From an uncultured Candidatus Saccharibacteria bacterium (GTDB lineage Bacteria; Patescibacteriota; Saccharimonadia; Saccharimonadales; Saccharimonadaceae), in the NCBI GenBank assembly GCA_947085525.1, contig CAMTWU010000003.1, positions 25,866 through 89,865 of the forward strand: a stretch of 64,000 nucleotides of DNA, read 5' to 3'. Under the pieces are notes generated by a model. It made no database searches, was not told the DNA's origin, and saw only the letters and a program-made list of their open reading frames with translations. The position numbers and the translations under genes are program-made. Below, in pieces: positions 5,786 through 54,762 of the stretch (position 1 is the first letter of the stretch; each line of letters begins with the position of its first letter).

Positions 5786-7468
5786 ATGTCATTTAATACC
5801 AATGCTGAGAAAATTTCAAGCCAACGCCAACCCGAACTTCTAGCAGAAGTAATTGTTCGTTGTAACGATAGGCTCGATGAACTAGAAGAAGAAAGAAGTT
5901 TCGTTAATCCTGATACAGAATTTGATAGGCAAGAGACTCTTGATTTACTAAACCAAGATTTTGACCTAATACCATTTGAAGATCTGCGAGATTCTTTAAA
6001 AGGAAACGAGTTAGAACATAAAAAGGCAAATCGATCTGTATCTAATGTGGACAAAGAGATCGACCTTGAATCTAGGCGTTTAGATGCTTTAGCTCGATCA
6101 CTTCCAGCTCATGTTCGTGAGCAAGCGATAAAGGCAGCTCAAGCGAAAATTGACGAGTTCAAAGACCGTTTTGAACCCGGACATAGTGAAAGGCATGCAA
6201 GACTAAGTAGCCTCGCTGTGCAAATAGCCCTAACTAGCGACGCAGAGGCACTTTTTAGTCGTGAATGGTATGTAGCTGCAGAAAATAGGCCCGAAGAAGA
6301 AGTATTTACAAGTGATAATCACTGGGATGATGAAGAGGAAACTGAAACTACAGAAGTATCTGTAGATGATGAAGAGCAGGTAGAAGAAGAGCAAGAGCTA
6401 GGTCCATATGCCGAGCTTGCTGATCAGATACCAACCTTGACCGATCGTCTAGAGCGGTCTTATTCGTCGCACCAACATATCTATGGAGAAATCGAAACAG
6501 CGTATACTGTATTGACTCGTATTCTTGATCCAAATTTTGATTTTGATACCGCAACTGACGAAGAAAAAGCAGCATATACACAAGTCAAGGTTGTACTGCC
6601 AAAGTTTATACCTAGTCTCATGAAAAATGGCGAGCTACAACTAGACCACCCATTACTAAAAGTCTATACAACAGAAGATATTGATGATTTGCAACGACGG
6701 TTTAGAGCTTTTTCACCGAAAGACCGCGCTGAATTTGACGGACTAGAGTCTCGTGTTTTACAGACTGCTGAGGTAGCTTTTAATTATCCAGATAGCCAGA
6801 TACCAAAAGATCTTGAAGGGGCCTTAGAACGTATGCATGCTGAAGCACCTAATCGAATTGGGTTGCGATGGGACAAGCTTAACAAATATGCCGATCTTGC
6901 ATCTGATGCAATTCGACAAAAAATGAAAGGTGGAGGCAAGCAAAATCTGTATCTAAAAGAGTATATTTTTGATGCTCGAGATACTAGTGGAACCGAACCA
7001 AACTTTTCATTCATATATCAGTTTATTGCAGACGAATTTGCTCTGGAAGTACATGCGAAACGGCTTGATGTAAAATCTAAAATGACGAATACACGTTTTG
7101 AAAATAACTACCACATCATAACTGAATGGTACAAAGAAGCAAAAGATCTAATAGACCAAGTTCCACGGGAAATATGTTTAGCAAAGAGAAACAGGGGAAG
7201 AGTTGTCACTAGACATGGTGGCAAAGAGCAATTCAACGCATGGTCGGCCGTGCGTTCAATCACCGGTCTGATCGAAGATATCAGCATTCGTCGGAATGGA
7301 ACAGGTGATCCTAAAGTACTGAGACATAAGTCTGTTGAACGCGATTATCAAGGTGCTCTTAATGCCCAGTTTGCATTGGGTCATATGGTAGACGAAATGA
7401 TCGAAAGACTACGCATCCACGGCATTGCTCCTGACTATGTTAGTGAAGACATTACACCTCTGGACTAA
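5786..7468 (+). CDS. Hypothetical acidic protein (560 aa), second gene of the helicase cluster
   Basis: Long uninterrupted ORF with an SD (tggaga) upstream. It contains an acidic tract WDDEEETETTEVSVDDEEQVEEEQE. No motif recognised. Confidence 0.6.
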   Translation: MSFNTNAEKISSQRQPELLAEVIVRCNDRLDELEEERSFVNPDTEFDRQETLDLLNQDFDLIPFEDLRDSLKGNELEHKKANRSVSNVDKEIDLESRRLDALARSLPAHVREQAIKAAQAKIDEFKDRFEPGHSERHARLSSLAVQIALTSDAEALFSREWYVAAENRPEEEVFTSDNHWDDEEETETTEVSVDDEEQVEEEQELGPYAELADQIPTLTDRLERSYSSHQHIYGEIETAYTVLTRILDPNFDFDTATDEEKAAYTQVKVVLPKFIPSLMKNGELQLDHPLLKVYTTEDIDDLQRRFRAFSPKDRAEFDGLESRVLQTAEVAFNYPDSQIPKDLEGALERMHAEAPNRIGLRWDKLNKYADLASDAIRQKMKGGGKQNLYLKEYIFDARDTSGTEPNFSFIYQFIADEFALEVHAKRLDVKSKMTNTRFENNYHIITEWYKEAKDLIDQVPREICLAKRNRGRVVTRHGGKEQFNAWSAVRSITGLIEDISIRRNGTGDPKVLRHKSVERDYQGALNAQFALGHMVDEMIERLRIHGIAPDYVSEDITPLD

Positions 7469-7473
7469 TAACT

Positions 7474-8748
7474 ATGGCTGAAATTTACGACGAAGTAGCT
7501 GGACTGAAACCCTGGAGACCCAATTACACATTTAACGAACCGTTAAATGTTGTTGTTTTTGATAGCTTAGTTTCTCGGTTAAACATGGTAAAAGTACAGC
7601 ATGACAACGATAATATACTATACGCGGGTGCGCACGGCGTTATATATGAATCGGTAGATCCAATAGCAGTTACTGCACGTTCTCAAACACTAGGACTTCA
7701 TCCAATACCACATGTTTTTGAACCAACAAAGGCCGTGGAGGAAGGTGGATTTATTGAAGAAGCGAGAGCTCGTGAACTACAATTAGCTATTACCAGAGCT
7801 TCTATTAAATCGGCTATTGATTCTGAAGTAGCTGAAGATTTTGATAAATCAGTACAGGACATCATCGAATCATTACGCGACGTGAAGATACGGGTACATG
7901 ATAGAGAACTACTACAGGAAAGTGCCGTTTTGCCTCGTCATGATATGTTCAGAGCTTTACTAGAGGCTTCTAAGCAGCACAAAACTATCACAAAGGACAA
8001 GTCAAGCACATTAGCTGGCATGATAAGTAGTGCTGTTGAGCTGGTATATAATCATAAAACCGAAGAACATGATATTTGGCAAAATTCCCCTGCTAGTAGG
8101 AATTTTGCTGAACGGTTTGCAACAAAGCGAAAACCACGAGCAAGAAGAGCTAAAGTAAAAACTACAAATTCAAAAAAGACTAAGCCTGAAAAATATTTAT
8201 CTATACCCCAAACACCAGAAGAAACATTCTTTACTCGAATTCGTCTAAAAGGTGCACCAAATGATTTAGGAAAGCGACGAGAATGGTTGCATGAAAAATA
8301 CATTAAAGAAGGTCTAGAGTTCCCAGAGCATACCGAAGAACAAAAGGTAGCAACGGTTAGAAGTGGCGTTAATGCATACCTAGAAACATATACAAAACAA
8401 AGAGGTCCAAACCAACCGCTAAGCGTACAAATAACAGATTATCTGAGAACTGCTCAAAAAGAAAAAGTGTTCAAAAAAATACTAACAATAGGTAATCTAT
8501 TTGCAGCAAAAATAAATGATTTTAGTAAATATGATGACTCACAGGAAAAGCCTATAAAAGCACCAGGTATTGACTGTAATACAGCATCAATACTTGCATC
8601 ATTTCAAATAATGAGAAGAAAGCTAAGTGGAAAATATGACAACGAAAAAAATGAATCTGAAAGTGCAAAACAGATTGCCGATCTATTAGAGCTATACATA
8701 GCCTCAACCAGTTTTGACTATGATTTCAGTCGAGCAGTACGATTTTAA
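7474..8748 (+). CDS. Hypothetical protein (424 aa) with an internal Lys/Arg tract, third gene of the helicase cluster
   Basis: It starts 6 nt after the preceding stop. The basic tract is KRKPRARRAKVKTTNSKKTKPEK. No domain recognised. Confidence 0.6.
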   Translation: MAEIYDEVAGLKPWRPNYTFNEPLNVVVFDSLVSRLNMVKVQHDNDNILYAGAHGVIYESVDPIAVTARSQTLGLHPIPHVFEPTKAVEEGGFIEEARARELQLAITRASIKSAIDSEVAEDFDKSVQDIIESLRDVKIRVHDRELLQESAVLPRHDMFRALLEASKQHKTITKDKSSTLAGMISSAVELVYNHKTEEHDIWQNSPASRNFAERFATKRKPRARRAKVKTTNSKKTKPEKYLSIPQTPEETFFTRIRLKGAPNDLGKRREWLHEKYIKEGLEFPEHTEEQKVATVRSGVNAYLETYTKQRGPNQPLSVQITDYLRTAQKEKVFKKILTIGNLFAAKINDFSKYDDSQEKPIKAPGIDCNTASILASFQIMRRKLSGKYDNEKNESESAKQIADLLELYIASTSFDYDFSRAVRF

Positions 8749-33621: not shown

Positions 33622-35631
33622 ATGTCAAAATTTCTACGTGATTTATTAGATGCCGAGGAACCACTCTTTGGCTTGAGTCTACGTGATCTAGAAAAAGCCA
33701 GCGGTAAACAAGGTGTTGATGCTAGGTTGATTGCTGATATTACCCAAGAGACTCATCAAGCTATCCGTGAGCTAGGGTTAGATCACAAAAATACCACGGG
33801 CAAAGAATTTTACCAAGCATTGATGGCGCGCGTAGCAAGCGATAACGAACGGGTGACTAAAATTGTTGGCGGAACAGATAGTGATGACGTGCGCCAAATG
33901 GTTCCGCTGCTAGTAGCTGCAGCTAACAAAGTAAAATTCAATCGCAAAGTTTTTGTACTAAAACACGACAAAGCCAAAGATTTGCTGCGACAAATGCCAC
34001 CGAAAAAACTGATGCAACGGCTAGGCTACGATAATATCGAAGATTTATTTGGAGGTGAGAATTTTTCCGAGCTCTATACTGCCCTGCGGTTTTCCGAAGG
34101 CGCAGATTGGCTAAATGAATATAATGAGCTGTTCAAGACTGTCGCGGCTGATGATTACGAAGAGCGTGATATCGAAATTGTTGTGATGGATCATGACAAA
34201 TATGTCGATCTGGCCGAACATTTTGTTGAGAAAAAGCTACATAACGTGACCCATACCAAAGAGCTGGGCGTAATAGTTGTTGTTCCGATGCACGCAAAGC
34301 GCATCAAAGGTCTGACACTCAAAACATTGCCACTACTCTTTCATTACCTGAACGAAGTGAAACTGTATTCGACTTTCTTTAAGCTAAAGTCCAAAACAGC
34401 CAAGCAATTTGGCGAGACTGTGATGGAAACATTGATAGCCGATCCTGCAAAGGCCGCCTCGATCTCGGGCAGGCACGTACACTGGCGAGTTATTCAGCGG
34501 TATTTTGGCAAACTAAAGGACGAGAGTCACCTAGAAGCATTTGAACCACATGTTCAACCCGAGGATCTACATTGGCGCCGTGCCGAGGATCTACTGTATC
34601 AGATAGATCCTGAAATGAAATTTTACAAAAGCCGCGACTGGGTTGGTATGATGTACGATGGCAGTCCCGTGACACTCAATTTTGTCGATATCGCCCTCGG
34701 TTATTCAAATGATATTAGCTACGAAGATCGTTATGTGTATCATTTCCGTGAGAGCTTGTGGAACGAAATATTTGCCCGTTATATGGGTATGCCTAACCTG
34801 AGAGAGCAAGTGCTGAATCAATTAGATAATGATATGATTGCACCCGAAAAGCTCGGTACAGGTAAAAAAAAACGAGCTAAGTCTGCAGAGTCGGAAGCTG
34901 CACCCTACTGCCCAACGGCGTTGATCGAACAAAACAAGCTGAATCATTTGCTGGTTCGCGAAAAGCTAGTCGATGCAGCCGCTGGTAAATTGATAGGTGT
35001 TATAGACGAGTTCGAAAAAGCTTTTGAAGTACTAGGTAAATACCCTAGGACGGTGACTGTATTTGGATCGGCTAGGTTACCTCAAAATCATCCAGCTTGC
35101 AAAGCCGCTTATGAGCTAACCAAGAAAATTGCCCAGGAAGATTATGCGATTGTCACAGGCGGCGGCCACGGCATCATGGAAGCCGCGAATCATGCTGCCT
35201 ATGATATTGGTACTGGATCTGTCGGCCTTAATATCGAATTGCCGACCGAGCAAAGTCTCAACAAATATACGACCGATCATTACACGTTCGAACATTTCTT
35301 TAGCCGCAAGGTCGCATTGACTTTTGACGCTAGCGGATACGTATTTTGCGCAGGAGGTTTCGGGACACTAGATGAGTTATTTGAGATAACTACCCTAGCA
35401 CAAACTGGCATCATACCTCGTGCGCCAATCATTCTATATGGCAGTGACTTTTGGAATCCACTAGCTGACTACATACAACACACACTGAATGAAAAATTTG
35501 GAACTATTGGTCCTGATGATCCCAAGCTGCATATTATTACTGACGATCCATTAGAGATTATTGCTTATATCGAGGCATATGAAAGCGGTCGACCAAGCTT
35601 TGCAAACCACTCGAGCGTACATCCGCTATAA
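33622..35631 (+). CDS. Fusion protein: unknown N-terminal region of about 450 aa plus a C-terminal LOG/TIGR00730 (nucleotide N-ribohydrolase) domain
   Basis: The C-terminal 200 aa carries VTVFGSARL...TGGGHGIMEAAN...GGFGTLDELFE, which are the LOG-family motifs. The N-terminal part has no motif I recognise. Confidence 0.75.
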   Translation: MSKFLRDLLDAEEPLFGLSLRDLEKASGKQGVDARLIADITQETHQAIRELGLDHKNTTGKEFYQALMARVASDNERVTKIVGGTDSDDVRQMVPLLVAAANKVKFNRKVFVLKHDKAKDLLRQMPPKKLMQRLGYDNIEDLFGGENFSELYTALRFSEGADWLNEYNELFKTVAADDYEERDIEIVVMDHDKYVDLAEHFVEKKLHNVTHTKELGVIVVVPMHAKRIKGLTLKTLPLLFHYLNEVKLYSTFFKLKSKTAKQFGETVMETLIADPAKAASISGRHVHWRVIQRYFGKLKDESHLEAFEPHVQPEDLHWRRAEDLLYQIDPEMKFYKSRDWVGMMYDGSPVTLNFVDIALGYSNDISYEDRYVYHFRESLWNEIFARYMGMPNLREQVLNQLDNDMIAPEKLGTGKKKRAKSAESEAAPYCPTALIEQNKLNHLLVREKLVDAAAGKLIGVIDEFEKAFEVLGKYPRTVTVFGSARLPQNHPACKAAYELTKKIAQEDYAIVTGGGHGIMEAANHAAYDIGTGSVGLNIELPTEQSLNKYTTDHYTFEHFFSRKVALTFDASGYVFCAGGFGTLDELFEITTLAQTGIIPRAPIILYGSDFWNPLADYIQHTLNEKFGTIGPDDPKLHIITDDPLEIIAYIEAYESGRPSFANHSSVHPL

Positions 35632-37613: not shown

Positions 37614-37649
37614 CCGGTGTCTCAAATTTCTTTCGAGACGAAACACCGG
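37614..37649. terminator. Imperfect hairpin between convergent uvrB and a minus-strand membrane protein gene
   Basis: CCGGTGTCTC...GAGAC-gaa-ACACCGG, preceded by an A run and so usable from either strand. It is not a textbook terminator. Confidence 0.4.
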
Positions 37650-37667
37650 AGCCTTGCGCGGTTTGTT

Positions 37668-38087
37668 TTACGGACCACACCACCGTATGAACTCCTTGCG
37701 CTGCGTGAACTCGCTGGCATCTGTGATCGGAGTTTTGTACTTGACCCCAGCGATGTTCGCGAGCCACTTGCCGTCGTCACGGTTAAGGGTGACGCGACAG
37801 CCAACAGGGTAACCCTGCAAGCTGACCCCAGCCTCTCTGCTGTAAATCATTACAACACCCCGAAAGCCAAGCGCCTGAAGAGCTGCCTTGTCTTTGTCAG
37901 ATTGCTTCTGGTTGCCAGCCTCCTCTGCCGCTATGGCGAATGCCAGTGCAGCTATAAAAGCCAGAGCACCAAGATTGCCAAGCCACTTTGCTCGTTGTTT
38001 GTTCTTCTCAGGATCAGTTCGCAAGCAAAAAACAATGAGCACAATTGCGACTAACACAAAAAAGAGCGCCACATACCACATGTTCAT
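37668..38087 (-). CDS. Hypothetical two-TM membrane protein in a locally GC-elevated segment
   Basis: The start is set at ATGAACATG behind AAGGTGGTG. It has two hydrophobic helices and then a soluble tail of about 70 aa. The antisense 145-aa ORF is rejected. Confidence 0.5.
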   Translation of the reverse strand: MNMWYVALFFVLVAIVLIVFCLRTDPEKNKQRAKWLGNLGALAFIAALAFAIAAEEAGNQKQSDKDKAALQALGFRGVVMIYSREAGVSLQGYPVGCRVTLNRDDGKWLANIAGVKYKTPITDASEFTQRKEFIRWCGP

Positions 38088-42691: not shown

Positions 42692-45600
42692 GTGAGTAAG
42701 CAAGCGGTACAATTACAGCCGTCTGATTATGTGCATTTGCATAATCACACCCACCATAGCTTGCTCGATGGCATGACGAAAATCGATGCCCTGGTAGAGC
42801 GTGTCAAAATGATGGGCATGGAAGCTGTTGCGATGACTGACCATGGCACATTATCTGGCACGATTGACTTTTACAAAGCCTGTAAAGGCGAGGGTATCAA
42901 GCCGATTATCGGCATGGAAGCCTACATAGCTGCTCGCAAACATACTGACAAAGAAGCCCAGCATGACAAGCCGCGCTATCACCTGATCATCCTCGCGATG
43001 AATAACAAGGGGTATGAGAACCTGATGCGACTTTCAACAATCGCCAATCTGGATGGTATGTACTACAAACCTCGTATTGACCGCGATCTGTTAGAGCAAT
43101 ACAACGAAGGATTAATCATCCTGAGTGGATGTGCCAGTAGCGAAATCGGCGAAGCACTAAAAAATGGCAACTATGAACCTGCCAAAAAGACTGCTCAGTG
43201 GTATAAAAAAATATTTGGCGATCGATATTATCTGGAGATCCAAGACCATGGTGATTGGGAAGACCAGTTAAAGATCAATGCTGGTGTTGAAAAACTATCC
43301 AGGGAGTTGGACATTCCTAGAGTACTAACAGGCGATGCCCACTACTTGAACAAAGATGATTCTCAAGCTCACGAAATTTTATTATGTGTTGGCACAAACG
43401 CCTATTTGTCAGACAAAAACCGTATGAGTCTAGAAGGCTTCCATCTACACGTCCGTGATCCAAATGAAATTATCGAAAAATGGGGTGATCAACCCGAGCT
43501 CATTACGACTAGCAAAGCTATTGCTGATCGCTGTGATGTAGAGATCGAACTCGGTAGTATCTTGATCCCGACATTTCCAACTCCGCCGAAAGAAACCGAA
43601 AAAAGCTATCTACAAAAACTAGTCTATCAAGGGTTGGCATGGCGCTACGGTAATGTTGAGCGTGAAAAAGCGTTGAAAATGACCGTTACTGATGCAAAGA
43701 AAAAGTTGCCTGACAATGTGCTGGAACGTGCCAAGTTTGAACTAAGTGTCATCGACAATATGGGCTTCAATGGTTATTTCTTGATCGTGCAGGACTTTAT
43801 CAACTGGGGTAAAGATCGCGGAATTATTTTTGGTCCCGGTCGTGGTAGTGCGGCTGGCTCGATCATTTCGTATGCCCTGAACACGACAGATCTTGATCCA
43901 ATTCACTACGATTTACTGTTCGAAAGGTTCCTCAACCCAGATCGTATCTCGATGCCTGATATCGATATTGATATTCAAGATACCCGTCGCGATGAAGTGA
44001 TTCAATATTGTATAGATAAATACGGCAGTGACCGCGTGGCGAATATTGTCACCTTTGGAACCATGGCAGCACGGGCGGCAGTACGAGATGTTGCACGTGT
44101 GTTAGAAGTACCATACGCCGAAGCTGATCACTTGGCCAAACTCATTCCACCACCTGTGCAGGGGCGACATATTCCACTGGCAAAAAGCATCCAGGACGAT
44201 CCAGACCTAAAGAACCAATATGAAACAAATGAACGAGCTCACGAAGTAATCGACTTTGCATCTAGACTAGAGGGAACCATACGCTCACATGGTGTACATG
44301 CCGCGGGTGTGGTGATTGCACCAGACGAGTTGGTCAAATTTGCACCACTAGAAATGGCGCAAAAGGGTGTCGTTTCGACCCAGTACCCGATGTTCCCGAT
44401 TGAAGATCTAGGTCTACTCAAAATGGATTTTTTGGGTCTTTCTAACCTGACAACAATCAATAATGCCATGAGGATAGTAAAGAAAGTTTACGGTGAGGAT
44501 ATCGATCTCAACACATTGAAACTTGATGACAAAGAAACCTACGAGCTATTCCAGCGTGGCGACACGACCGGTGTATTTCAGTTAGAATCTGCCGGAATGA
44601 AACGCTATCTCAAGCAACTAAAACCGAGCGTGTTCGATGACATTATTGCCATGGTTGCTTTGTATCGTCCTGGTCCAATGCAGTTTATCGATAGCTTTAT
44701 CAAACGAAAACATGGGAAAGAAAAAATCAGCTACCTGCACCCAAAGATGGAAAATGCCCTGAGCAATACCTACGGGGTTTTGGTGTACCAAGAGCAGTTT
44801 ATGCAGATCAGTAAGGATCTTGCTGGGTTTACTGGTGGTCAAGCCGATACCCTTAGGAAGGCGGTTGGTAAAAAGATCATGACAATGATGAAAAAGATCA
44901 AACCAGAATTTGTCGAGGGTGCGATCAAACATAGCAATGCCGATCGAAAAACGATGGAACTCTTTTGGGATCAGCTAGAAGAATTCGCTAACTATTGTTT
45001 CAACAAATCTCATGCTGCATGTTACGCATTGATCTCGTACTGGACTGCGTATCTCAAAGCCCACTACCCAGATGCTTTTATGGCAGCATTGATGACGAGT
45101 GATCAGGGTGATATTGACCGATTAGCAATCGAAATTGCTGAGGCACAGCATATGGGTATCAAAGTGTTGTCACCAGACGTAAACCTGAGTTTCGTTGAGT
45201 TCTCGGTCGTACCAGGCAAGAACGAAATCCGTTTTGGCTTGGCTGCGGTCAAGGGTGTTGGTGTCGGAGCTGTCGAAGCAATTTTGGAAGCCCGAGAAGC
45301 AGGCCCATTCACCTCACCAGAAGATTTTGCAAAACGTGTACCTGCCAATAAGGTCAATCGTCGAGTTTGGGATTCACTCATCAAATCAGGTGCATTTGAT
45401 TCTATGGCAGATCGATCAGACCTACTGTTCAATCTAGATGTTATTCTAGGCTTTGCTTCAAAACTACAAAAAGAAGCCTTGTCTGGACAAACAGATTTGT
45501 TTGCGAGCTTGGGAGAGACGGTATCTGACGTTATACCGAGCCTCGATCTGAAACCATCACCAACCAAACACAGCGAAAAAGAACGCCTCACCTGGGAGCG

Positions 45601-46312
45601 AGAACTACTCGGTCTATACCTCAGCTCCCATCCGCTCGACCCATACTCGGTCTATCTCAACGAGCAAACAGTTCCTCTAGACCAAGTCACACTCGATGCA
45701 GACGGCAAAGGCTTGACCGTTGGTGGAATCATCAGCACCGTTCGAGCTATCACGACCAAAAATGGCAGCAAGATGGCTTTCCTCAAATTAGAAGATAAAT
45801 TCGGTGAGACAGAAATAATCATTTTTCCGAAACTCTACCAAGAAATTGGCGAACGGCTGCTGCAGGATACTGTTATCAAGGTGAACGGTCGTGTCAATGC
45901 TCGTAACCAAGCTGGTAACTTGCAGGACGAAACAAAAGTTATTGTCGAAAAAATAACCATTGTGTCTCAGGAAGAGCTGGATAACTATCAACCGACAGGA
46001 CAACAGCAAAAAGCTCCCGCAGCCAAAAAAGGCAGCAAAAAAGCTACTAACGAGAAAAAGAAAACTGAAACTGTCGAACCGGTCAGTACTATCCCGACTA
46101 TGTATATTCATATCAAGGACACTAACGACCATGATAGACTACGCGAAATGAAGCGAGAGCTCAGTAGTGTGCCTGGTGAGAATCAAGTTATTTTGGTGCT
46201 AGGCGAAGATAAAGCGTCTGCTATTCGCCTACCTTTTACGACTAATTTGTCAGAAAGTCTGGTCGCAAATATAAAGAGTCTGTACGGATCTGACCAAGTG
46301 GTTGTGAAATAG
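42692..46312 (+). CDS. dnaE: DNA polymerase III alpha subunit
   Basis: 1206 aa with a GTG start. The PHP domain opens FVHLHNHTHHSLLDG, followed by PDIDIDI, the finger and beta-binding regions, and an OB fold. Confidence 0.95.
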   Translation: MSKQAVQLQPSDYVHLHNHTHHSLLDGMTKIDALVERVKMMGMEAVAMTDHGTLSGTIDFYKACKGEGIKPIIGMEAYIAARKHTDKEAQHDKPRYHLIILAMNNKGYENLMRLSTIANLDGMYYKPRIDRDLLEQYNEGLIILSGCASSEIGEALKNGNYEPAKKTAQWYKKIFGDRYYLEIQDHGDWEDQLKINAGVEKLSRELDIPRVLTGDAHYLNKDDSQAHEILLCVGTNAYLSDKNRMSLEGFHLHVRDPNEIIEKWGDQPELITTSKAIADRCDVEIELGSILIPTFPTPPKETEKSYLQKLVYQGLAWRYGNVEREKALKMTVTDAKKKLPDNVLERAKFELSVIDNMGFNGYFLIVQDFINWGKDRGIIFGPGRGSAAGSIISYALNTTDLDPIHYDLLFERFLNPDRISMPDIDIDIQDTRRDEVIQYCIDKYGSDRVANIVTFGTMAARAAVRDVARVLEVPYAEADHLAKLIPPPVQGRHIPLAKSIQDDPDLKNQYETNERAHEVIDFASRLEGTIRSHGVHAAGVVIAPDELVKFAPLEMAQKGVVSTQYPMFPIEDLGLLKMDFLGLSNLTTINNAMRIVKKVYGEDIDLNTLKLDDKETYELFQRGDTTGVFQLESAGMKRYLKQLKPSVFDDIIAMVALYRPGPMQFIDSFIKRKHGKEKISYLHPKMENALSNTYGVLVYQEQFMQISKDLAGFTGGQADTLRKAVGKKIMTMMKKIKPEFVEGAIKHSNADRKTMELFWDQLEEFANYCFNKSHAACYALISYWTAYLKAHYPDAFMAALMTSDQGDIDRLAIEIAEAQHMGIKVLSPDVNLSFVEFSVVPGKNEIRFGLAAVKGVGVGAVEAILEAREAGPFTSPEDFAKRVPANKVNRRVWDSLIKSGAFDSMADRSDLLFNLDVILGFASKLQKEALSGQTDLFASLGETVSDVIPSLDLKPSPTKHSEKERLTWERELLGLYLSSHPLDPYSVYLNEQTVPLDQVTLDADGKGLTVGGIISTVRAITTKNGSKMAFLKLEDKFGETEIIIFPKLYQEIGERLLQDTVIKVNGRVNARNQAGNLQDETKVIVEKITIVSQEELDNYQPTGQQQKAPAAKKGSKKATNEKKKTETVEPVSTIPTMYIHIKDTNDHDRLREMKRELSSVPGENQVILVLGEDKASAIRLPFTTNLSESLVANIKSLYGSDQVVVK

Positions 46313-46340
46313 TTAACGCTAATGGTAAAATTGTAATCAT

Positions 46341-47717
46341 ATGGCACACAGAGGGACTCTAGTGAGGGGTAAGCAGCTGAACAAGTGGTCGGTACTATTA
46401 TTTTTTTCAATAATATTACTAGTGATTTTTAGTTTTGTTAGTTACAAAAATAGTCTATCCTCACATTCGGCACAAAGCCCAGTCAGTAAGGCAGCACAAA
46501 TCTCAGCCAAATCCTTTGGTACAGCATATACCGTTACTAGGGTGCACGCATCAAAAAATACCATTATCATGAATAACCTATGGCGTTCATCTGTGCAACT
46601 AGCGGGTGGAGGTTATAATAACTGCGCTCTCTCTAATGGTAATGTGTATTGTTGGGGCAAAGGAACAAATGGTCAACTAGGAAACAGCGCAAGTAGTAAT
46701 GCTGTGACACCAGTAGCTGTCACAAGAGACATATTAAATGGGCAAAGAATGACTCAAATAGCGGGTGGTGCTAATCATATGTGTGCGATCAACAGTGGAT
46801 TGGCTGCATGTTGGGGGGATAATACTTATGGCCAACTCGGTAACAACAGTGCGACAACTTCGTTCAATACCCCGCAACAAGTAGCTACGTTTGGTCCACT
46901 CCTCACTATTAGTCATATAGCAGCAGGTGCACGGAATAGCTGTGGAATCGCCAGTAATGCGGCGTATTGCTGGGGCGATAATTCATCCGGGGCAGTTGGC
47001 AATAATTCATCTACAAACGTAGCGTCTCCTACTCTCGTTACTGCTTCTGCGGGGTTATTAGGAGGTAAATCGGTTACTCAAATTCAGGTTGGGGGGCTAT
47101 TTGCCTGTGCACTTGCAAACGGTGGTGTGTATTGTTGGGGTAGTAATACTTATGGCCAACTCGGCAACAGCAGTACAACATTGAGCAGGGTGCCTGTCAG
47201 AGTTCTGAATACGGGAGCTTTGCTAAACAAGACGGTTTCACAAATAGCTGTAGGTAACGAGCATGCTTGCGCTATTGCCGACGGCCAGGCCTACTGTTGG
47301 GGTCGCAACAACTACGGTCAGCTAGGTACAGGGAATACGACCAATAGTAGTGTTCCTGTCGAAGTCAGTACTTCTACAGGGTTATTAGGCAAAGTGGTCA
47401 CAAATGTACTTAACGGTGGATATTCTCATACATGTGCTATAGCTGATAGTCAGGCATATTGTTGGGGTCGCAACAATTACGGTCAACTAGGTGATGGCAC
47501 GATAGCCGACAAGACTAGCCCTGTCGCAGTTAATGTTTCTGGAGTGCTGAGTGGTAAAGGTGTGACGCAACTTATCGGCGGTGATTTGTACACATGTAGT
47601 ATTGCAAACGGACGTGCATACTGCTGGGGAGATAACTCCTTTGGCCAGTTAGGTATAAATGCCAACACTCCTGTGAGTACCTCGATACCTTATAGGGTAA
47701 ATGATGGGTATTATTAG
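46341..47717 (+). CDS. Membrane-anchored RCC1-repeat (seven-bladed beta-propeller) protein
   Basis: N-terminal TM helix followed by seven repeats of the type (Y/A)CWG.N.YGQLGN spaced about 50 aa apart. A GTG at 46362 behind AGAGGGA is an alternative start. Confidence 0.8.
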   Translation: MAHRGTLVRGKQLNKWSVLLFFSIILLVIFSFVSYKNSLSSHSAQSPVSKAAQISAKSFGTAYTVTRVHASKNTIIMNNLWRSSVQLAGGGYNNCALSNGNVYCWGKGTNGQLGNSASSNAVTPVAVTRDILNGQRMTQIAGGANHMCAINSGLAACWGDNTYGQLGNNSATTSFNTPQQVATFGPLLTISHIAAGARNSCGIASNAAYCWGDNSSGAVGNNSSTNVASPTLVTASAGLLGGKSVTQIQVGGLFACALANGGVYCWGSNTYGQLGNSSTTLSRVPVRVLNTGALLNKTVSQIAVGNEHACAIADGQAYCWGRNNYGQLGTGNTTNSSVPVEVSTSTGLLGKVVTNVLNGGYSHTCAIADSQAYCWGRNNYGQLGDGTIADKTSPVAVNVSGVLSGKGVTQLIGGDLYTCSIANGRAYCWGDNSFGQLGINANTPVSTSIPYRVNDGYY

Positions 47718-47726
47718 GAAAATAGT

Positions 47727-49373
47727 ATGAATATATTTTTGAATCGAAAACAACATACAAACGGATTCGTACTGCCAACAGTGCTGGTACTCTCGGTAGT
47801 ACTAATGACGCTTGGACTGTCTGTATTCCAACTCACATCCAGTATTGCTCGTTCATTGACTGATCAATATTGGCAAAGACTTTCCAAACAAACTGCGCAG
47901 GCAGGAGTTTCGTATGTCTCAGCCTGTGTAGATCAAGGTTTGAGTCCCAGTACTTGGCCTGCATCTATTACACAAGACAACACATGTTTAGGGGCTTCAT
48001 TGGGGACCCAGGCTAGTGTCTTTACAAATAGTAGTGATACAAACCCGATACCAAATCCGTATAGATCAAATTTTACTATTTATAGACCAACCACTAGTGG
48101 CGACGGTATACCAAAAGCTCGAGTTGTCGGCTCTGTAAATATTCTCAACACAGCAGGGAGTACGATCAAGACATATACATACGAAATGCTTGCTATCGTG
48201 AATGGCCCCACTCAGGCATACACCCAAATAGTAGCAGGATACAAGCACACTTGTGGACTTACTGATGGCAAAGTATATTGTTGGGGTTCAAATGCAGTAG
48301 ACCCTCCGACAAATAACAACACGATCACGGGGCAATTAGGTATAGGTTCGGCAAGTACTAATGTAACAACTCCAAATCTGGTCGGCGGCCTATTATCTGG
48401 CAAATTTGTGACCTCAGTATCTGCGGGTAGGAACTTTACATGTGCCGTAGCTAACGGACAGGTATATTGCTGGGGAGCGAATGGCAGTGGGCAACTCGGT
48501 AATAATAGTACGACATCCAGCGCAGTACCTGTCTCGGCATACACAGGACAGCTGGTAAACAAACGGGTGACTGCGATTAGCGCTGGTACAGACTTTGCCT
48601 GTGCCGTAGCTAACGGACAGGTATATTGTTGGGGGAATGGTGCTAACGGACAGCATGGCAATAGCACAACAAACACTACCAGTACCCCTGATACTGCTGT
48701 CACTGGTATCACGAACGCAGACGCATTATCCGCTGGCGGTAACCATACCTGTGCACTCATGAACGGAACGCCATACTGTTGGGGAGGTGGTGCAAATGGG
48801 CAGCTCGGCAATGGTGCCACGCCAGCTACCCAATCGTCACCTGTAGCAGTAGCTATCGGAGGAGCATTTGTATATAAAATATATGCAAACAATACGTTTA
48901 CCTGCGCCCTTGCACTAACAGGTCTACCATATTGTTGGGGTAACAACAGTAATGGACAATTAGGAACCAATAACACTACTAGTTATGCAACAGCCCAGCC
49001 CGTGAACACAACCAATGTCGTTGGTCTCATTACAGACATGAGCTCATCGAGTTCGTCGGAGTACCACGCATGTCTGATGGCAAACGGCAATGCATTTTGT
49101 TGGGGAACAGGCTCGTCAGGTCAGCTCGGTAACAACGCGACAAGTCAAAACAACCGTCCAGTAGCAGTTGATACCTCAGGACTTTTGCCAACCAACAGAA
49201 CAATTACAAACATTACTACAGGTGGTATTCATACCTGTGCATTGGCCGAAGGTCAGCCTTATTGTTGGGGTAGCGGAGTCGCAGGTTCGTTAGGTAACGG
49301 TGTCGATAATGCATCGTGTGGATGTACTAACTCTCCAAACTCTGTACCAAAGAAAACAATCAACTCTTACTAG
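47727..49373 (+). CDS. PilX-like minor-pilin N-terminus fused to a seven-bladed RCC1-repeat propeller
   Basis: The N-terminus NGFVLPTVLVLSVVLMTLGLSVFQL...SKQTAQAGVSY resembles the PilX_N / pseudopilin hydrophobic segment and its A..AEAG motif. Seven (Y/F)CWG...GQ(L/H)GN or GSLGN blades follow. Confidence 0.7.
   Translation: MNIFLNRKQHTNGFVLPTVLVLSVVLMTLGLSVFQLTSSIARSLTDQYWQRLSKQTAQAGVSYVSACVDQGLSPSTWPASITQDNTCLGASLGTQASVFTNSSDTNPIPNPYRSNFTIYRPTTSGDGIPKARVVGSVNILNTAGSTIKTYTYEMLAIVNGPTQAYTQIVAGYKHTCGLTDGKVYCWGSNAVDPPTNNNTITGQLGIGSASTNVTTPNLVGGLLSGKFVTSVSAGRNFTCAVANGQVYCWGANGSGQLGNNSTTSSAVPVSAYTGQLVNKRVTAISAGTDFACAVANGQVYCWGNGANGQHGNSTTNTTSTPDTAVTGITNADALSAGGNHTCALMNGTPYCWGGGANGQLGNGATPATQSSPVAVAIGGAFVYKIYANNTFTCALALTGLPYCWGNNSNGQLGTNNTTSYATAQPVNTTNVVGLITDMSSSSSSEYHACLMANGNAFCWGTGSSGQLGNNATSQNNRPVAVDTSGLLPTNRTITNITTGGIHTCALAEGQPYCWGSGVAGSLGNGVDNASCGCTNSPNSVPKKTINSY
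48441..48469 (+). repeat. 29-nt perfect direct repeat, copy 1 (copy 2 at 48600-48628)
   Basis: tgtgccgtagctaacggacaggtatattg occurs twice, 159 nt (53 codons, one blade) apart. Each copy encodes CAVANGQVYCW. Confidence 0.9.
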
Positions 49374-49873
49374 GTGTTATAAACCAAACCGTATAGCGCG
49401 ATACCCGCAGCAACGCTGACGTTGAACGATTCTTTTTGCCCTTTCATTGGGATTTCTATCAGTTGATCGCACTTTTGTCGCAGTTCAGTACTGATACCAT
49501 CAACTTCTTCGCCCAGTACCAGGATGATTTTTTCAGGTGGCGTAAAGTCCGACAATTCAATTGCTGATTCATCCTGCTCCAAACCCACAATTTTATAACC
49601 ATGGGCTTTGAAAGCATCTAACGTACTAGCGATATGTGGAACGTGTGAAAATGGCACCGTTTTTTCAGCACCCAACGCCGTCTTTGATATATCTGCTGTT
49701 AATTTCTGCACAATATGAGGTAATCGGGTATCGGACTCAATCTCCGGATACGGTGTATAGCCGCTGAGGTACAGGTGCTGTACGCCGAAACCATCGCACG
49801 TGCGAAAGATCGAGCCCACGTTGTGAGCCGAGCGAACATTGTGCGCTACAACCGAGATTTGTATATCTGCCAT
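49370..49873 (-). CDS. SpoU/TrmH-family RNA 2'-O-methyltransferase
   Basis: The start is set at MADIQISVVAHNVRSAHNVGSIFRTCDGFG. The C-terminal SPOUT knot motif is IPMKGQKESFNVSVAAGIALY. The upstream 49 codons of the track ORF overlap the pilB promoter and start. Confidence 0.8.
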   Translation of the reverse strand: MADIQISVVAHNVRSAHNVGSIFRTCDGFGVQHLYLSGYTPYPEIESDTRLPHIVQKLTADISKTALGAEKTVPFSHVPHIASTLDAFKAHGYKIVGLEQDESAIELSDFTPPEKIILVLGEEVDGISTELRQKCDQLIEIPMKGQKESFNVSVAAGIALYGLVYNT

Positions 49874-49922: not shown

Positions 49923-51554
49923 ATGGATACTGACAATAAACAAGCAATTCGTTTTCGCGAAACTGACGAGGATGCTACCCAGAAACGGGCGGCATTAATT
50001 GGTATAGAATACCTAGACACTAGAGGTATTTCGGATGTATCGCCACTACTGACTGATGTGTTGACAGTCGAGCAGATGTATCAAGGTAAATTGATCCCCC
50101 TCAAAAAAGGCAATGATGCCGATCCGTATGTGTATGGTGTCACTAGTGATACCCCACAATCTCTCACGCAAAAGCTCAAAGCCGACTGGCAAGAGAAGGG
50201 TGTAAATACTAAATTCTTGCTCATCAGTAAAGCTGGTTACCGTGAATTTATGCAGCGCTTTGATCCACCAAAGGAAGTTGTCTATGACGATGTCGAAATC
50301 GCCAAGGATGGTGATAGTGACACGATCGAAGCAGTATCGCAAACTCTCGACAGTGTGAGAACTGACGATATTTTGGACTATTTGATTGATCAGGCAGATA
50401 GTTTGGGCGCCAGCGATATCCATATCGAAAACCAGCGCGAGAATGTTCGGGTGCGATTCCGAGTTGATGGGGCATTGCACTCGGTGGCTAATCTGACTCA
50501 CGAAAAATATCGTATTCTCAAAGCATCGCTAGCAACAAAGGCAAATATCTCGACTGCTTCAGCAGATGCTCAGAGTGGCAGTATGCAAAAGCAAGTTATG
50601 GCTAAAGGCGGAACAGTAGATCATTTCCTCAATATGCGTATCGAAACCGTCCCGACAGTATATGGCCAAGATGTGGTAATCCGTCTATTCAACTTTGACG
50701 AGACACTACTGGATCTCAACAATATTGGCGTCAATGAACGCGAACGAGCCCAGATAGATGAGATCGTTTCGCATCCGCGTGGCATGGTGTTGATGGTTGG
50801 TCCAACTGGTTCGGGAAAATCAACCACGCTCTATAGCATGATTAATGCTCTCAACACACCTGATCGCAAAGTCGTTACCCTAGAAGATCCTGTCGAATTC
50901 CGCATACCTGGTGTCAGTCAGATACCAGTCAATACAGGTGGTGGTCAAACTTTTGCCGACAAGTTGCGAGCAGTACTGCGACTAGACCCCGATATCGTCA
51001 TGGTCGGTGAGATTCGTGACAACGACACCGCTCGCACGACTATACAGGCGGCCATCACTGGTCACCTGGTATTATCAACATTTCATGCCGAAACAGCTAG
51101 TGCGGCATTTTCACGTATGATCGATATGATTGGTATTAATCCTATATTCTCAACCGCTATTCGTTTAGTGGTTGGACAACGTTTAGTACGTAAACTAGAC
51201 GAAAACAAAGAAGCCTACACGGCAGACGAGGCTACTAGCAAGTGGATACGAGATGTACTGAGTGATTTACCACCTGTTATAGAAAAACCTAACCTGGACG
51301 GTGAGATTACCTTGTACAAGCCGAAAGTCAGCGATGAATCACCATTTGGATACAAGGGCAGAGTGATTTTGATGGAGCAACTAGTTGTCGACGAAGAAAT
51401 CCAAAAATTCCTACGTGGTGAAATTGCTGATGCACACGCCGAGACTATCGAGAAAGCCGCCAAAGCTCAGGGTATGGTCACGATGATACAATCAGGAGTC
51501 CTGCGAGCACTCTCAGGCGAAACAACCCTCGAAGAAATTCACCGAGTACTTTAG
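49923..51554 (+). CDS. pilB: Type IV pilus / type II secretion assembly ATPase (GspE/PilB family)
   Basis: 543 aa with Walker A GPTGSGKSTT, the Asp box, Walker B DPDIVMVGEIRD and the His box TGHLVLSTFH. Confidence 0.9.
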   Translation: MDTDNKQAIRFRETDEDATQKRAALIGIEYLDTRGISDVSPLLTDVLTVEQMYQGKLIPLKKGNDADPYVYGVTSDTPQSLTQKLKADWQEKGVNTKFLLISKAGYREFMQRFDPPKEVVYDDVEIAKDGDSDTIEAVSQTLDSVRTDDILDYLIDQADSLGASDIHIENQRENVRVRFRVDGALHSVANLTHEKYRILKASLATKANISTASADAQSGSMQKQVMAKGGTVDHFLNMRIETVPTVYGQDVVIRLFNFDETLLDLNNIGVNERERAQIDEIVSHPRGMVLMVGPTGSGKSTTLYSMINALNTPDRKVVTLEDPVEFRIPGVSQIPVNTGGGQTFADKLRAVLRLDPDIVMVGEIRDNDTARTTIQAAITGHLVLSTFHAETASAAFSRMIDMIGINPIFSTAIRLVVGQRLVRKLDENKEAYTADEATSKWIRDVLSDLPPVIEKPNLDGEITLYKPKVSDESPFGYKGRVILMEQLVVDEEIQKFLRGEIADAHAETIEKAAKAQGMVTMIQSGVLRALSGETTLEEIHRVL

Positions 51555-53312: not shown

Positions 53313-53330
53313 AGCTCCTACACAAGAAAT

Positions 53331-53358
53331 AAAACCACTCTGTTCTGGGGTGGTTTTT
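53331..53358 (+). terminator. Rho-independent terminator of rplS
   Basis: AAAACCAC-tctgttctgg-GTGGTTTTT. Confidence 0.75.
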
Positions 53359-53380
53359 AGTTTAAAAAAAAAGAAGACCT

Positions 53381-53415
53381 CCCGGGTCGACACCAAATGA
53401 ATGGTGCCGCCCGGG
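53381..53415 (-). terminator. Hairpin plus U-run terminating the 54-codon minus-strand ORF
   Basis: CCCGGG..CACCA / TGGTG..CCCGGG, an imperfect stem of about 13 bp. On the minus strand it is followed by aggtcttc and then a T9 run (plus-strand A run 53364-53372). Confidence 0.5.
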
Positions 53416-53502
53416 TTAGGTCCGTCTTTGTGATCCAACTGCGCCGGAAAAACCGACTAGCCCTCCCGAGCTAGGATCTACAAAGGTGCGCGTCGCTGAG
53501 GA

Positions 53503-53667
53503 TCAGTCCGGGTTGAAGCCGGCGATGCCGCCGGTGGCGGAGTTGGCCTTGGTCGCGTTGCGCGCGTGCGTCGAGGAGGTCGTGCTGATCTGCATTTCGT
53601 TCTCAATTTCGGAGATGTTTCCGAGGGGTGTGCCGCGAGCCGCGGCGAGGGAATGCAGGTGCTTCAT
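53503..53667 (-). CDS. 54-aa ORF with extreme GC3 bias, unknown function (below the cutoff of the ORF track)
   Basis: MKHLHSLAAARGTPLGNISEIENEMQISTTSSTHARNATKANSATGGIAGFNPD. 47 of 54 codons end in G or C. The promoter is near-consensus and there is a downstream hairpin. The SD is weak. Confidence 0.45.
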   Translation of the reverse strand: MKHLHSLAAARGTPLGNISEIENEMQISTTSSTHARNATKANSATGGIAGFNPD

Positions 53668-53732
53668 ATAGATGAACCAACTTTCTCTACTCGTCTTTCA
53701 TTTCCACCAGGTGGTTACCTGATTTACATAGC

Positions 53733-53761
53733 ATAGTATCATATATTAAAAAACTTGTCAA
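53733..53761 (-). promoter_or_regulatory. Near-consensus sigma70 promoter driving the 54-codon ORF
   Basis: On the minus strand: TTGACA (53761-53756), a 17-nt spacer, then TACTAT (53738-53733). Confidence 0.6.
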
Positions 53762-53801
53762 CACTTTTGTCAAACTATTTTGAAACATAAAAATAGGCAA
53801 G

Positions 53802-53848
53802 AAAAAACCTTCGTGACGAGTGGTGCTTTTTAGGGCACCACTCGTCAC
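53802..53848 (-). terminator. Strong intrinsic terminator (perfect 14-bp stem) for a minus-strand transcript
   Basis: GTGACGAGTGGTGC (53813-53826), an 8-nt loop, then GCACCACTCGTCAC (53835-53848). On the minus strand it is followed by gaagg and TTTTTT (plus-strand A6 at 53802-53807). Confidence 0.7.
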
Positions 53849-54121
53849 AGATAACCAGGAGGGAGAAATCAGGTACCCGGAAAGTTACAGGAACTAGGCG
53901 GTCGTGTGATTTCAATTTTTACTGCAGGTACTGCATGCTGCCCTTTTGGGGACTCGTCATCAGTGCGTCCTTGGTTTACTACCCCAATTGAATGCGATGA
54001 ACCATCCAGGGTTCGAACTGCTATCGGGTAGGACTACTGCGCCTTCGTATAAGTTTTTTCTTGCCAGTGTTTGTATTGGTACTTCGAGACCTCTGCATCC
54101 ATGCATGTTTCTCGATTACTC
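53802..54121 (-). ncRNA. Candidate unclassified non-coding transcript of about 320 nt
   Basis: It is bounded by the promoter at 54156-54128 and the 14-bp-stem terminator. Internal hairpins include TCGAGA..TCTCGA, CTACCC..GGGTAG, GAACC..GGTTC and TGCAG-tac-CTGCA. The only ORFs are at most 49 codons and lack an SD. Confidence 0.35.
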
Positions 54122-54127
54122 ACTATC

Positions 54128-54156
54128 AGTATATTCCTCACGCTTACGCTTGTAAA
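54128..54156 (-). promoter_or_regulatory. Sigma70-type promoter of the candidate ncRNA
   Basis: On the minus strand: TTTACA (54156-54151), a 17-nt spacer, then TATACT (54133-54128). Confidence 0.55.
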
Positions 54157-54172
54157 CACTTTTTTGTATGAA

Positions 54173-54199
54173 ATACAAAAAACTACCATTTAGGTAGTT
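54173..54199 (-). terminator. AT-rich hairpin plus U-run ending the rightmost minus-strand unit
   Basis: On the minus strand: AACTACC-taaat-GGTAGTT, then TTTTT. A second hairpin, TTTTTTGTAT-ttc-ATACAAAAAA, abuts it. Confidence 0.5.
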
Positions 54200-54391
54200 T
54201 GAAAGATGTTTCTATAAAAATGAGACAAGGAAATTGTGCTGGTGGACGGTGCGTAAAGCGCCGCCCACCAGCTGCAACATGGATGTCGTCGACACAGGCG
54301 TGGTGTGTTCCTGGTCTCGACGCAATGAGTACGAACAGACGAGTGACAGTCCGTGTCATTGCTTCCATTTGTGCATCGTGTAGTAAGACTA

Positions 54392-54427
54392 CGCCACATG
54401 AGAACTATCCATAGCTCTCATGTGGCG
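54392..54427. repeat. Perfect 12-bp inverted repeat with a 12-nt loop
   Basis: CGCCACATGAGA-actatccatagc-TCTCATGTGGCG. No U-run follows on either strand. Confidence 0.9.
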
Positions 54428-54762
54428 AGTTGACCAGAGGTAGCAACTTCGCTTGTTATTCGTCCTTCTCGGCAGGAACGAACAACGCCTCTGGCACACT
54501 TGTGGGTGAGTGGCTAGCGACCGCCGAAGCGAGAAACGCATTCTTGCGCGGCGCCGCCTCCTCCGCCACGACGGTTCATGCCGCTGCCGCCCTGACAGTG
54601 ACCACGAAAGCCACCGCCATTGCGTCACTTGACCTTTTCGCCAGTCTGGCGATTTGTTCCGCGAATCCCTACCATCGCATCTCCTTGTCTCGATTGAAAA
54701 CGGATGTTCTCAATTATCTTTTATATTAATACGCCTAGGCTCAATAGTCTATAGTAGACGAC

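Follow-up and report, generated by a model that had tools for sequence, protein, structure and literature searches.

The stretch analysed here, referred to below as the window, comprises 64,000 nucleotides (nt) of an uncultured Candidatus Saccharibacteria bacterium (assembly GCA_947085525.1, contig CAMTWU010000003.1, positions 25,866 to 89,865 of the forward strand). It harbours two adjacent genes, termed A and B, each coding for a seven-bladed beta-propeller of the RCC1 type. The product of gene B is probably a non-canonical minor pilin of the Saccharibacteria type IV pilus (T4P), similar to PilX2 of Nanosynbacter lyticus TM7x, and would display a host-binding propeller near the pilus tip. 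The two genes and the parts of gene B are located in the window as follows:

46341..47717, plus strand: gene A, 458 amino acids (aa), a putative type-II membrane-anchored (or secreted) seven-bladed RCC1 propeller
47727..49373, plus strand: gene B, 548 aa, a pilin-like module and an RCC1 propeller
47727..48221, plus strand: predicted PilX-like pilin module of gene B (aa 1-165)
48222..49373, plus strand: propeller head of gene B (aa 166-548 and the stop codon), seven RCC1 blades

An initial annotation, made from the sequence alone, had proposed a propeller-bearing minor pilin as a host-recognition adhesin, and this proposal is supported by a collinear homology to PilX2 together with the published genetics of that protein (PMC12206443). 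PilX2 (TM7x_02980) has been described as a minor pilin of the thin pilus T4P-2 which carries a hepta-bladed RCC1 propeller (Grossman et al., ISME J 2025;19:wraf119, PMC12206443; preprint PMC11623550). It has no predicted PilD signal peptide, and it was an N-terminal helix seen in AlphaFold models, rather than sequence similarity, that led to its discovery. Deletion of pilX2 reduced host binding from ∼10.6% to 4.6% of host cells, deletion of pilA2 (major pilin) or pilB2 (ATPase) led to similar defects, and PilX2 was proposed by the authors to be the T4P-2 adhesin (PMC12206443, PMC11623550). Rhamnose was also reported to inhibit binding (ISME J 2025, wraf119). The protein class, which the annotation had called uncharacterised, has thus already been studied genetically in the case of the TM7x homologue.

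A TM7x-type pilX2 gene was located by means of the genomic part of the published primer PilX2_Up_R, the scan of metagenome contigs yielding eight loci, and the sequence compared with B is that of contig L017. In this contig canonical pilins of 163, 155 and 275 aa are followed by a 576-aa RCC1 protein, which begins directly after the primer site, and then by a canonical pilin of 141 aa. Both the gene order and the 141-aa pilin agree with T4P locus three of TM7x, pilZ2-pilV2-pilW2-pilX2-pilA2, where PilA2 consists of 141 aa (ISME J 2025, wraf119). The BLASTP alignment of B (aa 5-525) with the TM7x-type PilX2 (aa 1-550) revealed 29% identity (E 8e-48) and was collinear across both the module and the propeller, while the profile of the B module family (alignment A1) matched the PilX2 N-terminus with an hhalign probability of 99.6% (E 1.5e-23). 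Since the BLASTP alignment runs end to end and is joined by the profile match, B is regarded as a divergent member of the PilX2 kind. Both proteins come from Saccharibacteria, and in both a pilin lollipop, predicted in the case of B, with neither a PilD-type signal nor Glu5 precedes a seven-bladed RCC1 propeller.

The two adjacent genes with seven RCC1-type blades each, as originally described, were recovered as open reading frames (ORFs) at the coordinates listed above. The Pfam search (models PF00415 and PF25390) matched WD40_RLD (RCC1-like domain) to A at E 5.4e-89 (299.5 bits) and to B at E 5.6e-68 (230.3 bits), the curated cut-off being 150 bits, and the RCC1 repeats at E 1.9e-68 and 6.5e-46, respectively, with many RCC1 and RCC1_2 repeat matches in each protein. 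Exactly seven CWG motifs are present per protein, at a spacing of 53-55 aa in A and 50-63 aa in B. With scores above the cut-off and seven repeats, both A and B are RCC1-like seven-bladed beta-propellers, and the repeat pattern is far beyond chance. The propeller of B ends in a conserved C-terminal tail, C.C...VP.K.IN.Y. The propellers of A and B are 38-45% identical, within genomes as well as between them, and the closest orthologue pairs reach 77-80%; these values led to the rejection of concerted evolution or of gene conversion between the two genes. The content of Gly+Ala+Ser+Thr has been used as a marker of exposed, shearable proteins (ISME J 2025, wraf119). It amounts to 43.8% in B and 41.9% in A as compared with 24-30% in cytoplasmic neighbours, values which agree with both products being proteins of this sort.

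Among known propellers of this kind, RCC1 is a eukaryotic guanine nucleotide exchange factor and BLIP-II a secreted beta-lactamase inhibitor, and neither of them is known to be fused to a pilin. A and B share the repeat family and the blade number with these proteins, with no sign of a functional relation. An inhibitory or enzymatic role of both propellers (BLIP-II-like or glycan-processing), as secreted or anchored proteins unconnected to pili, seems very improbable, for neither A nor B matched any enzyme family in Pfam or NCBIfam, and such a role would leave the PilX2 homology and the pilin module of B unexplained.

The protein encoded by gene B starts with ...HTNG|FVLPTVLVLSVVLMTLGL... and contains, further on, ...KQTAQAGVSY.... 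The leader is short and basic, the junction is G13|F14 (nt 47763-47768), and Pro occupies position +4 and Thr18 position +5, where Glu would be found in a canonical prepilin. B accordingly does not carry a class III signal peptide: the leader, G13 and F14 are present, Glu5 is missing, and there is no N_methyl (PF07963) match. Five residues (L16, P17, G60, C67 and C87) are invariant in a 60-sequence alignment of the module (alignment A1).

AlphaFold2 modelling of B 1-171 with this alignment gave a mean predicted local distance difference test score (pLDDT) of 86.6 and a predicted template modelling score of 0.72; the full-length protein modelled with no alignment was uninformative (pLDDT 36.8). 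In the model of the module, a 54-residue alpha-1 helix (aa 16-69, nt 47772-47933), which is first hydrophobic and further on amphipathic and contains the AQAG motif (AEAG in relatives), is packed on strands 80-82, 112-119, 129-140 and 146-157 of a beta-sheet spanning aa 80-157 (nt 47964-48197). Residues 1-165 of B are thus predicted to be a complete pilin-like lollipop module, which the propeller directly follows. The “linker domain” of ∼130 aa assigned to this region by the initial annotation is therefore to be replaced, according to the AlphaFold2 model, by the C-terminal half of the pilin helix and the globular beta-sheet. The same annotation had allowed for the N-terminus being no more than an ordinary signal anchor that lacks a pilin-like fold, and this outcome was not observed, the predicted lollipop being a confident one.

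An exhaustive HMMER search with B 1-171 over 1.84 billion cluster representatives led to the identification of 578 representatives at E ≤ 1e-3, of which 42 reached E ≤ 1e-10. In the best 150 of the 578 the match was situated at the protein's own N-terminus every time, and the lengths ranged from 124 to 1449 aa. Word-indexed homology searches, one with B 1-171 by itself and one with alignment A1, returned nothing, which reflects a limit of the index, since the exhaustive search gave 578 clusters. The family consensus reads GFALPTVLI.S...(hydrophobic)...DQYY..LA..AAEAG..YA..C...W...L.P.T.C.G...RS.F.V...G.V.LL...G...KTYT. A profile scan of genome contigs with a closer alignment (A3) yielded eight loci, all of them in metagenome-assembled genomes (MAGs) of uncultured Saccharibacteria/Patescibacteria, TM7x not being among them.

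When the 60 aligned modules were compared with known pilin models, the NCBIfam prepilin-type model NF007660 weakly matched 26 (best E 0.001), PilX_N 14 at E ≤ 1 (best 1e-4, all weak), HpsA nine (best E 6.6e-6), GspK two (best E 6.2e-4) and N_methyl a single one (E 0.074). A PilX_N match at E ≤ 1e-3 was found in one of 80 full-length family members, and the JGI/IMG name of one member cluster is “Tfp pilus assembly protein PilX”. The module family appears to carry a recurrent, albeit weak, pilin signal. As to the PilX-like N-terminus proposed for B, the predicted pilin fold, the homology to PilX2 and these weak family matches speak in its favour, and the PilX_N match expected of B itself did not materialise.

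The heads borne by the module are diverse. In the 80 full-length members RCC1 heads predominate (53), followed by Gly_rich_2 (nine), ricin-B lectin (eight and four by two models) and the ConA-like lectin Laminin_G_3 (two), and fibrinogen_C, CBM_4_9, PA14 and NHL heads occur in single members. Judging from these domain assignments, the heads make up an adhesin/lectin repertoire. In 15 of the 21 aligned B orthologues the pilin module is 70-77% identical and the propeller 38-46%. Lectin-type heads that are interchangeable and diverge fast, mounted on an assembly module that is conserved, are what characterises a family of receptor-binding proteins.

Minor pilins of the GspK/PilX/PilK type, cyanobacterial HpsA and ComGG-like proteins are located at the filament tip and possess a bulky extra domain, and the tip (pseudo)pilins of the GspK/PilX type lack Glu5, as expected of a filament-capping subunit. 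B resembles them in having a G|hydrophobic junction with no Glu5 and an A..AEAG-type motif in alpha-1. The GF.LP..L..S start of the B family may also resemble that of ComGG, although the hhalign match (probability 69%) covers 24 residues only. On the other hand, B itself reached no score with the models of these proteins, its extra domain is a C-terminal propeller and that of GspK-type proteins an inserted alpha-domain, and two traits of its module family, the invariant Pro (+4) and the pair formed by Cys67 and Cys87, are peculiar to that family. PilY1 of Pseudomonas and Myxococcus and PilC of Neisseria likewise place a seven-bladed beta-propeller at the type IV pilus tip for adhesion, and the same analogy was drawn in the TM7x paper (ISME J 2025, wraf119).

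Modular type IV pilins are also known from Streptococcus sanguinis, in which PilB carries a vWA module and PilC a lectin module (PNAS 2021, PMC8179133). They share with B the grafting of a pilin module to an adhesion module, whereby the filament gains binding specificity. The S. sanguinis proteins are canonical class III signal-peptide pilins. Their canonical counterparts are not B but the N_methyl-RCC1 fusions P0010, P0031, P0038, P0058, P0082, P0083 and P0088 of related small genomes, in which RCC1 heads are mounted on Glu5 prepilins. In addition, canonical prepilins (GFT[IL]VE, Pfam N_methyl) fused to double RCC1 propellers, ∼910 aa in length, were noted on contigs L024 (7001-9730) and L023 (7001-9751), the genomes of which look like Patescibacteria by gene content. 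L024 shares the rpe-tkt-fba-pfkB-LOG-uvrB gene order of the window and has the pilin-RCC1 gene directly after uvrB, where the window has a 145-aa ORF (37617-38054) with no Pfam match.

If B is a PilX2-like pilin, its helix would first be lodged in the membrane and subsequently join the growing pilus at its top, growth being powered by a PilB-type ATPase. Being devoid of Glu5, B would fit a tip or capping position, as GspK/PilX-type pilins suggest, so that its propeller would be presented at the tip of the pilus or close to it. In this position the propeller may bind a component of the host-bacterium surface, probably a cell-wall glycan, and act as a long-range tether of the epibiont. Compatibility with the assembly machinery would be maintained by the conserved module, and the head would diverge with the host or ligand.

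Several observations weigh against a place of B in the pilus. The Pfam search detected neither PilX_N (PF14341) nor N_methyl in full-length B, and neither of them appeared in B 1-163 even at E ≤ 10. The Foldseek comparison of the module model with the Protein Data Bank (PDB) produced no significant pilin match (best E 0.14), a profile search of PDB sequences with the module found nothing, and, because no significant PDB match is available, the pilin fold is assigned from the predicted topology only. No pilC, pilM, pilD (prepilin peptidase) or pilin genes were found in the window, and the B orthologues and more distant members of the module family are situated amid housekeeping genes and not in pilin operons. 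In TM7x, moreover, thin T4P-2 filaments are still extruded when PilX2 is missing, and the localisation of PilX2 in the pilus was not directly demonstrated (PMC12206443).

Such observations raise the question of whether B might be a cell-surface lectin or adhesin which never enters the pilus, its helix serving as a pilin-derived anchor and stalk and its propeller acting at the envelope like that of A. The missing Glu5 and prepilin-model match, the scattering of the module-family genes among housekeeping genes, the lack of a structural pilin match in the PDB and the assembly of thin pili by the TM7x pilX2 deletion mutant (PMC12206443) would all be in line with this explanation. It is a possible, if unlikely, one, since the 70-77% conservation of the module goes beyond what a mere anchor needs, and the anchor sequence of A is not conserved. 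It would also have to account for the retention, across 578 clusters, of the globular beta-sheet and of two invariant Cys residues, for the position of the TM7x-type homologue within a five-gene pilin operon, and for the binding defect of the pilX2 deletion, which equals that caused by loss of the major pilin or the ATPase (PMC12206443).

The tip-adhesin role favoured for B must also be set against that of a core minor pilin which mainly primes or regulates assembly (filament number and length), with the propeller acting as a sensor or plug and adhesion being secondary. Pilins of the GspK/PilX type lacking Glu5 do join priming complexes in other systems. Furthermore, deletion of pilX2 in TM7x alters filament counts, length and diameter, and priming “like PilY1 in Myxococcus” was raised by the authors as a possibility (PMC12206443). 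Nevertheless, a predominantly priming function appears improbable: T4P-2 filaments are extruded in the absence of PilX2 (PMC12206443), and the heads are fast-diverging and swapped among lectin-type domains, a pattern more easily reconciled with ligand recognition than with a conserved role in assembly.

The product of gene A appears to have, as the initial annotation stated, a plain N-terminal membrane anchor. Its N-terminus is basic, a single hydrophobic segment extends over approximately aa 17-35 (nt 46389-46445), and no pilin-like features are present; the comparison with the pilin-module profile gave an hhalign probability of 1.7%, on account of which A was rejected as a degenerate pilin. 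The hydrophobic segment, the sequence of which is not conserved among orthologues, is followed by a variable Ser/Ala-rich spacer. The pre-propeller segment SFG.AYTV.R...NNLW (aa 58-81) is conserved in the orthologue alignment, as is the C-terminus of the protein, PYRVND.YY; the propeller extends over approximately nt 46584-47714. From its sequence, A may be read as a type-II anchored, possibly cleaved and secreted, extracellular propeller.

The stop codon of A is separated from the start of B by 9 nt, and AGGA occurs 8 nt upstream of the B ATG, so that co-transcription of the two genes is very probable. The end of dnaE is overlapped by a promoter-like site (46302-46331). Promoter and terminator scans, however, gave sites no commoner than in shuffled sequence. 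The tandem of A and B is kept in three other Saccharibacteria MAGs with the same gene order, and in the one TM7x-type locus examined (L017) pilX2 has no membrane-anchored RCC1 paralogue beside it. Another MAG (L013, 4884-10754) codes for a tandem of RCC1 proteins of ∼920-980 aa, which lie downstream of a gene with a vWA domain and both start with a PilX-like module. Duplication in tandem of head-bearing PilX-like modules therefore recurs.

The published multiphase binding model postulates a “close-proximity adhesin” but does not name one (ISME J 2025, wraf119). For A the initial annotation had suggested the role of a surface partner or decoy. The propeller of A would be held at the cell surface by its plain membrane anchor and produced together with B, and our best guess is that A may be a short-range, membrane-proximal lectin or adhesin acting after tethering and complementing the pilus-borne B. 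A much broader proposal, in which A and B form a two-tier host-recognition pair (B at the long-range pilus tip, A as the postulated close-proximity adhesin) and the 578-cluster module family with its swappable lectin heads is the main host-range cassette system of epibionts, seems rather doubtful.

The genes surrounding A and B are the following:

42692..46312, plus strand: dnaE (DNA polymerase III alpha), ending 28 nt before gene A
49370..49873, minus strand: gene for a SpoU/TrmH-family RNA 2'-O-methyltransferase, overlapping the stop codon of B by 4 nt and convergent with B
49923..51554, plus strand: gene for a GspE/PilB-type pilus extension ATPase, 543 aa (T2SSE, E 4e-89)

The position of the SpoU gene between B and pilB and its divergence from pilB, both stated in the initial annotation, were confirmed by the ORF coordinates and by Pfam and NCBIfam matches, the gap between the two divergent genes being 49 bp. 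The start of the SpoU gene was set at Met50 of a 216-aa ORF, following the orthologues at this position, which measure 165-169 aa, and the gene is probably an unrelated housekeeping one. The pilB product matches both the GspE and the PilB models of NCBIfam, below their equivalog cut-offs, and its gene is an orphan, having no adjoining pilC, pilM or pilT either here or at the syntenic position in three related MAGs. As no canonical prepilin ORF was found in the 64-kb window, B lies outside any pilA2-type pilin operon. The TM7x-type pilX2 is located inside the operon pilZ2-V2-W2-X2-A2, whereas B is placed between dnaE and A on one side and the SpoU gene and the orphan pilB on the other. The remaining genes of the window are housekeeping ones, including gatCAB, pentose-phosphate and glycolytic genes, uvrB, pheST, relA, nusA and clpB, among others.

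The order dnaE-A-B-SpoU(-)-pilB-small ORF-malic enzyme is retained in three other Saccharibacteria MAGs, in which the B orthologues are 76%, 49% and 45% identical to B. In the same three MAGs, the gatCAB-dnaE...malic-rplS housekeeping neighbourhood is likewise syntenic. For this reason the adjacency of pilB is weak evidence of a functional link, and it was not accepted as proof of one.

Three further regions of the window deserve mention. Between rplS and the gene for RNase HII, a stretch of ∼1.45 kb (53313-54762) contains no ORF of more than 100 aa, has a GC content of 49% as against roughly 44-47% nearby, and gave no Rfam match at E ≤ 0.1, no tRNA and no tmRNA. Short islands of it (39-196 nt, 73-90% identity) are kept syntenically in the Saccharibacteria MAGs L007, L012 and L001/L008, and the stretch may represent a structured RNA that has escaped annotation or the remains of a decayed gene. 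Two consecutive plus-strand ORFs, 5786-7468 (560 aa) and 7474-8748 (424 aa), lie downstream of a ResIII/SNF2-type helicase gene and have no Pfam match at E ≤ 1e-3. Finally, in the 669-aa protein encoded at 33622-35631 a SLOG domain of the LOG/“lysine decarboxylase” type is confined to the C-terminal third (aa 476-649), and the preceding ∼470 aa show no Pfam match.

The literature search returned one directly relevant study, that of Grossman et al. (PMC12206443), and, as the concept of a PilX-like RCC1 pilin has already been published for TM7x, the gain provided by the present analysis is incremental. The modest new points are the conserved dnaE-A-B-SpoU-pilB locus outside a pilin operon, the tandem anchored paralogue A, the quantified contrast in conservation between module and head, and a module family with many heads of the lectin type. 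Attachment to host bacteria is the way of life of Saccharibacteria and other Patescibacteria, and the basis of their host choice is largely obscure. For a recognition head borne on the pilus, pilins of the PilX2 type are at present the leading candidate, and a lineage of environmental Saccharibacteria has the same design, with an identity of only 29%. The signature GF.LP..L..S ... AEAG ... C ... C.G could be used to mine metagenomes for candidate host-range determinants, and the locus puts forward A, the anchored paralogue, as a partner whose role could be tested.

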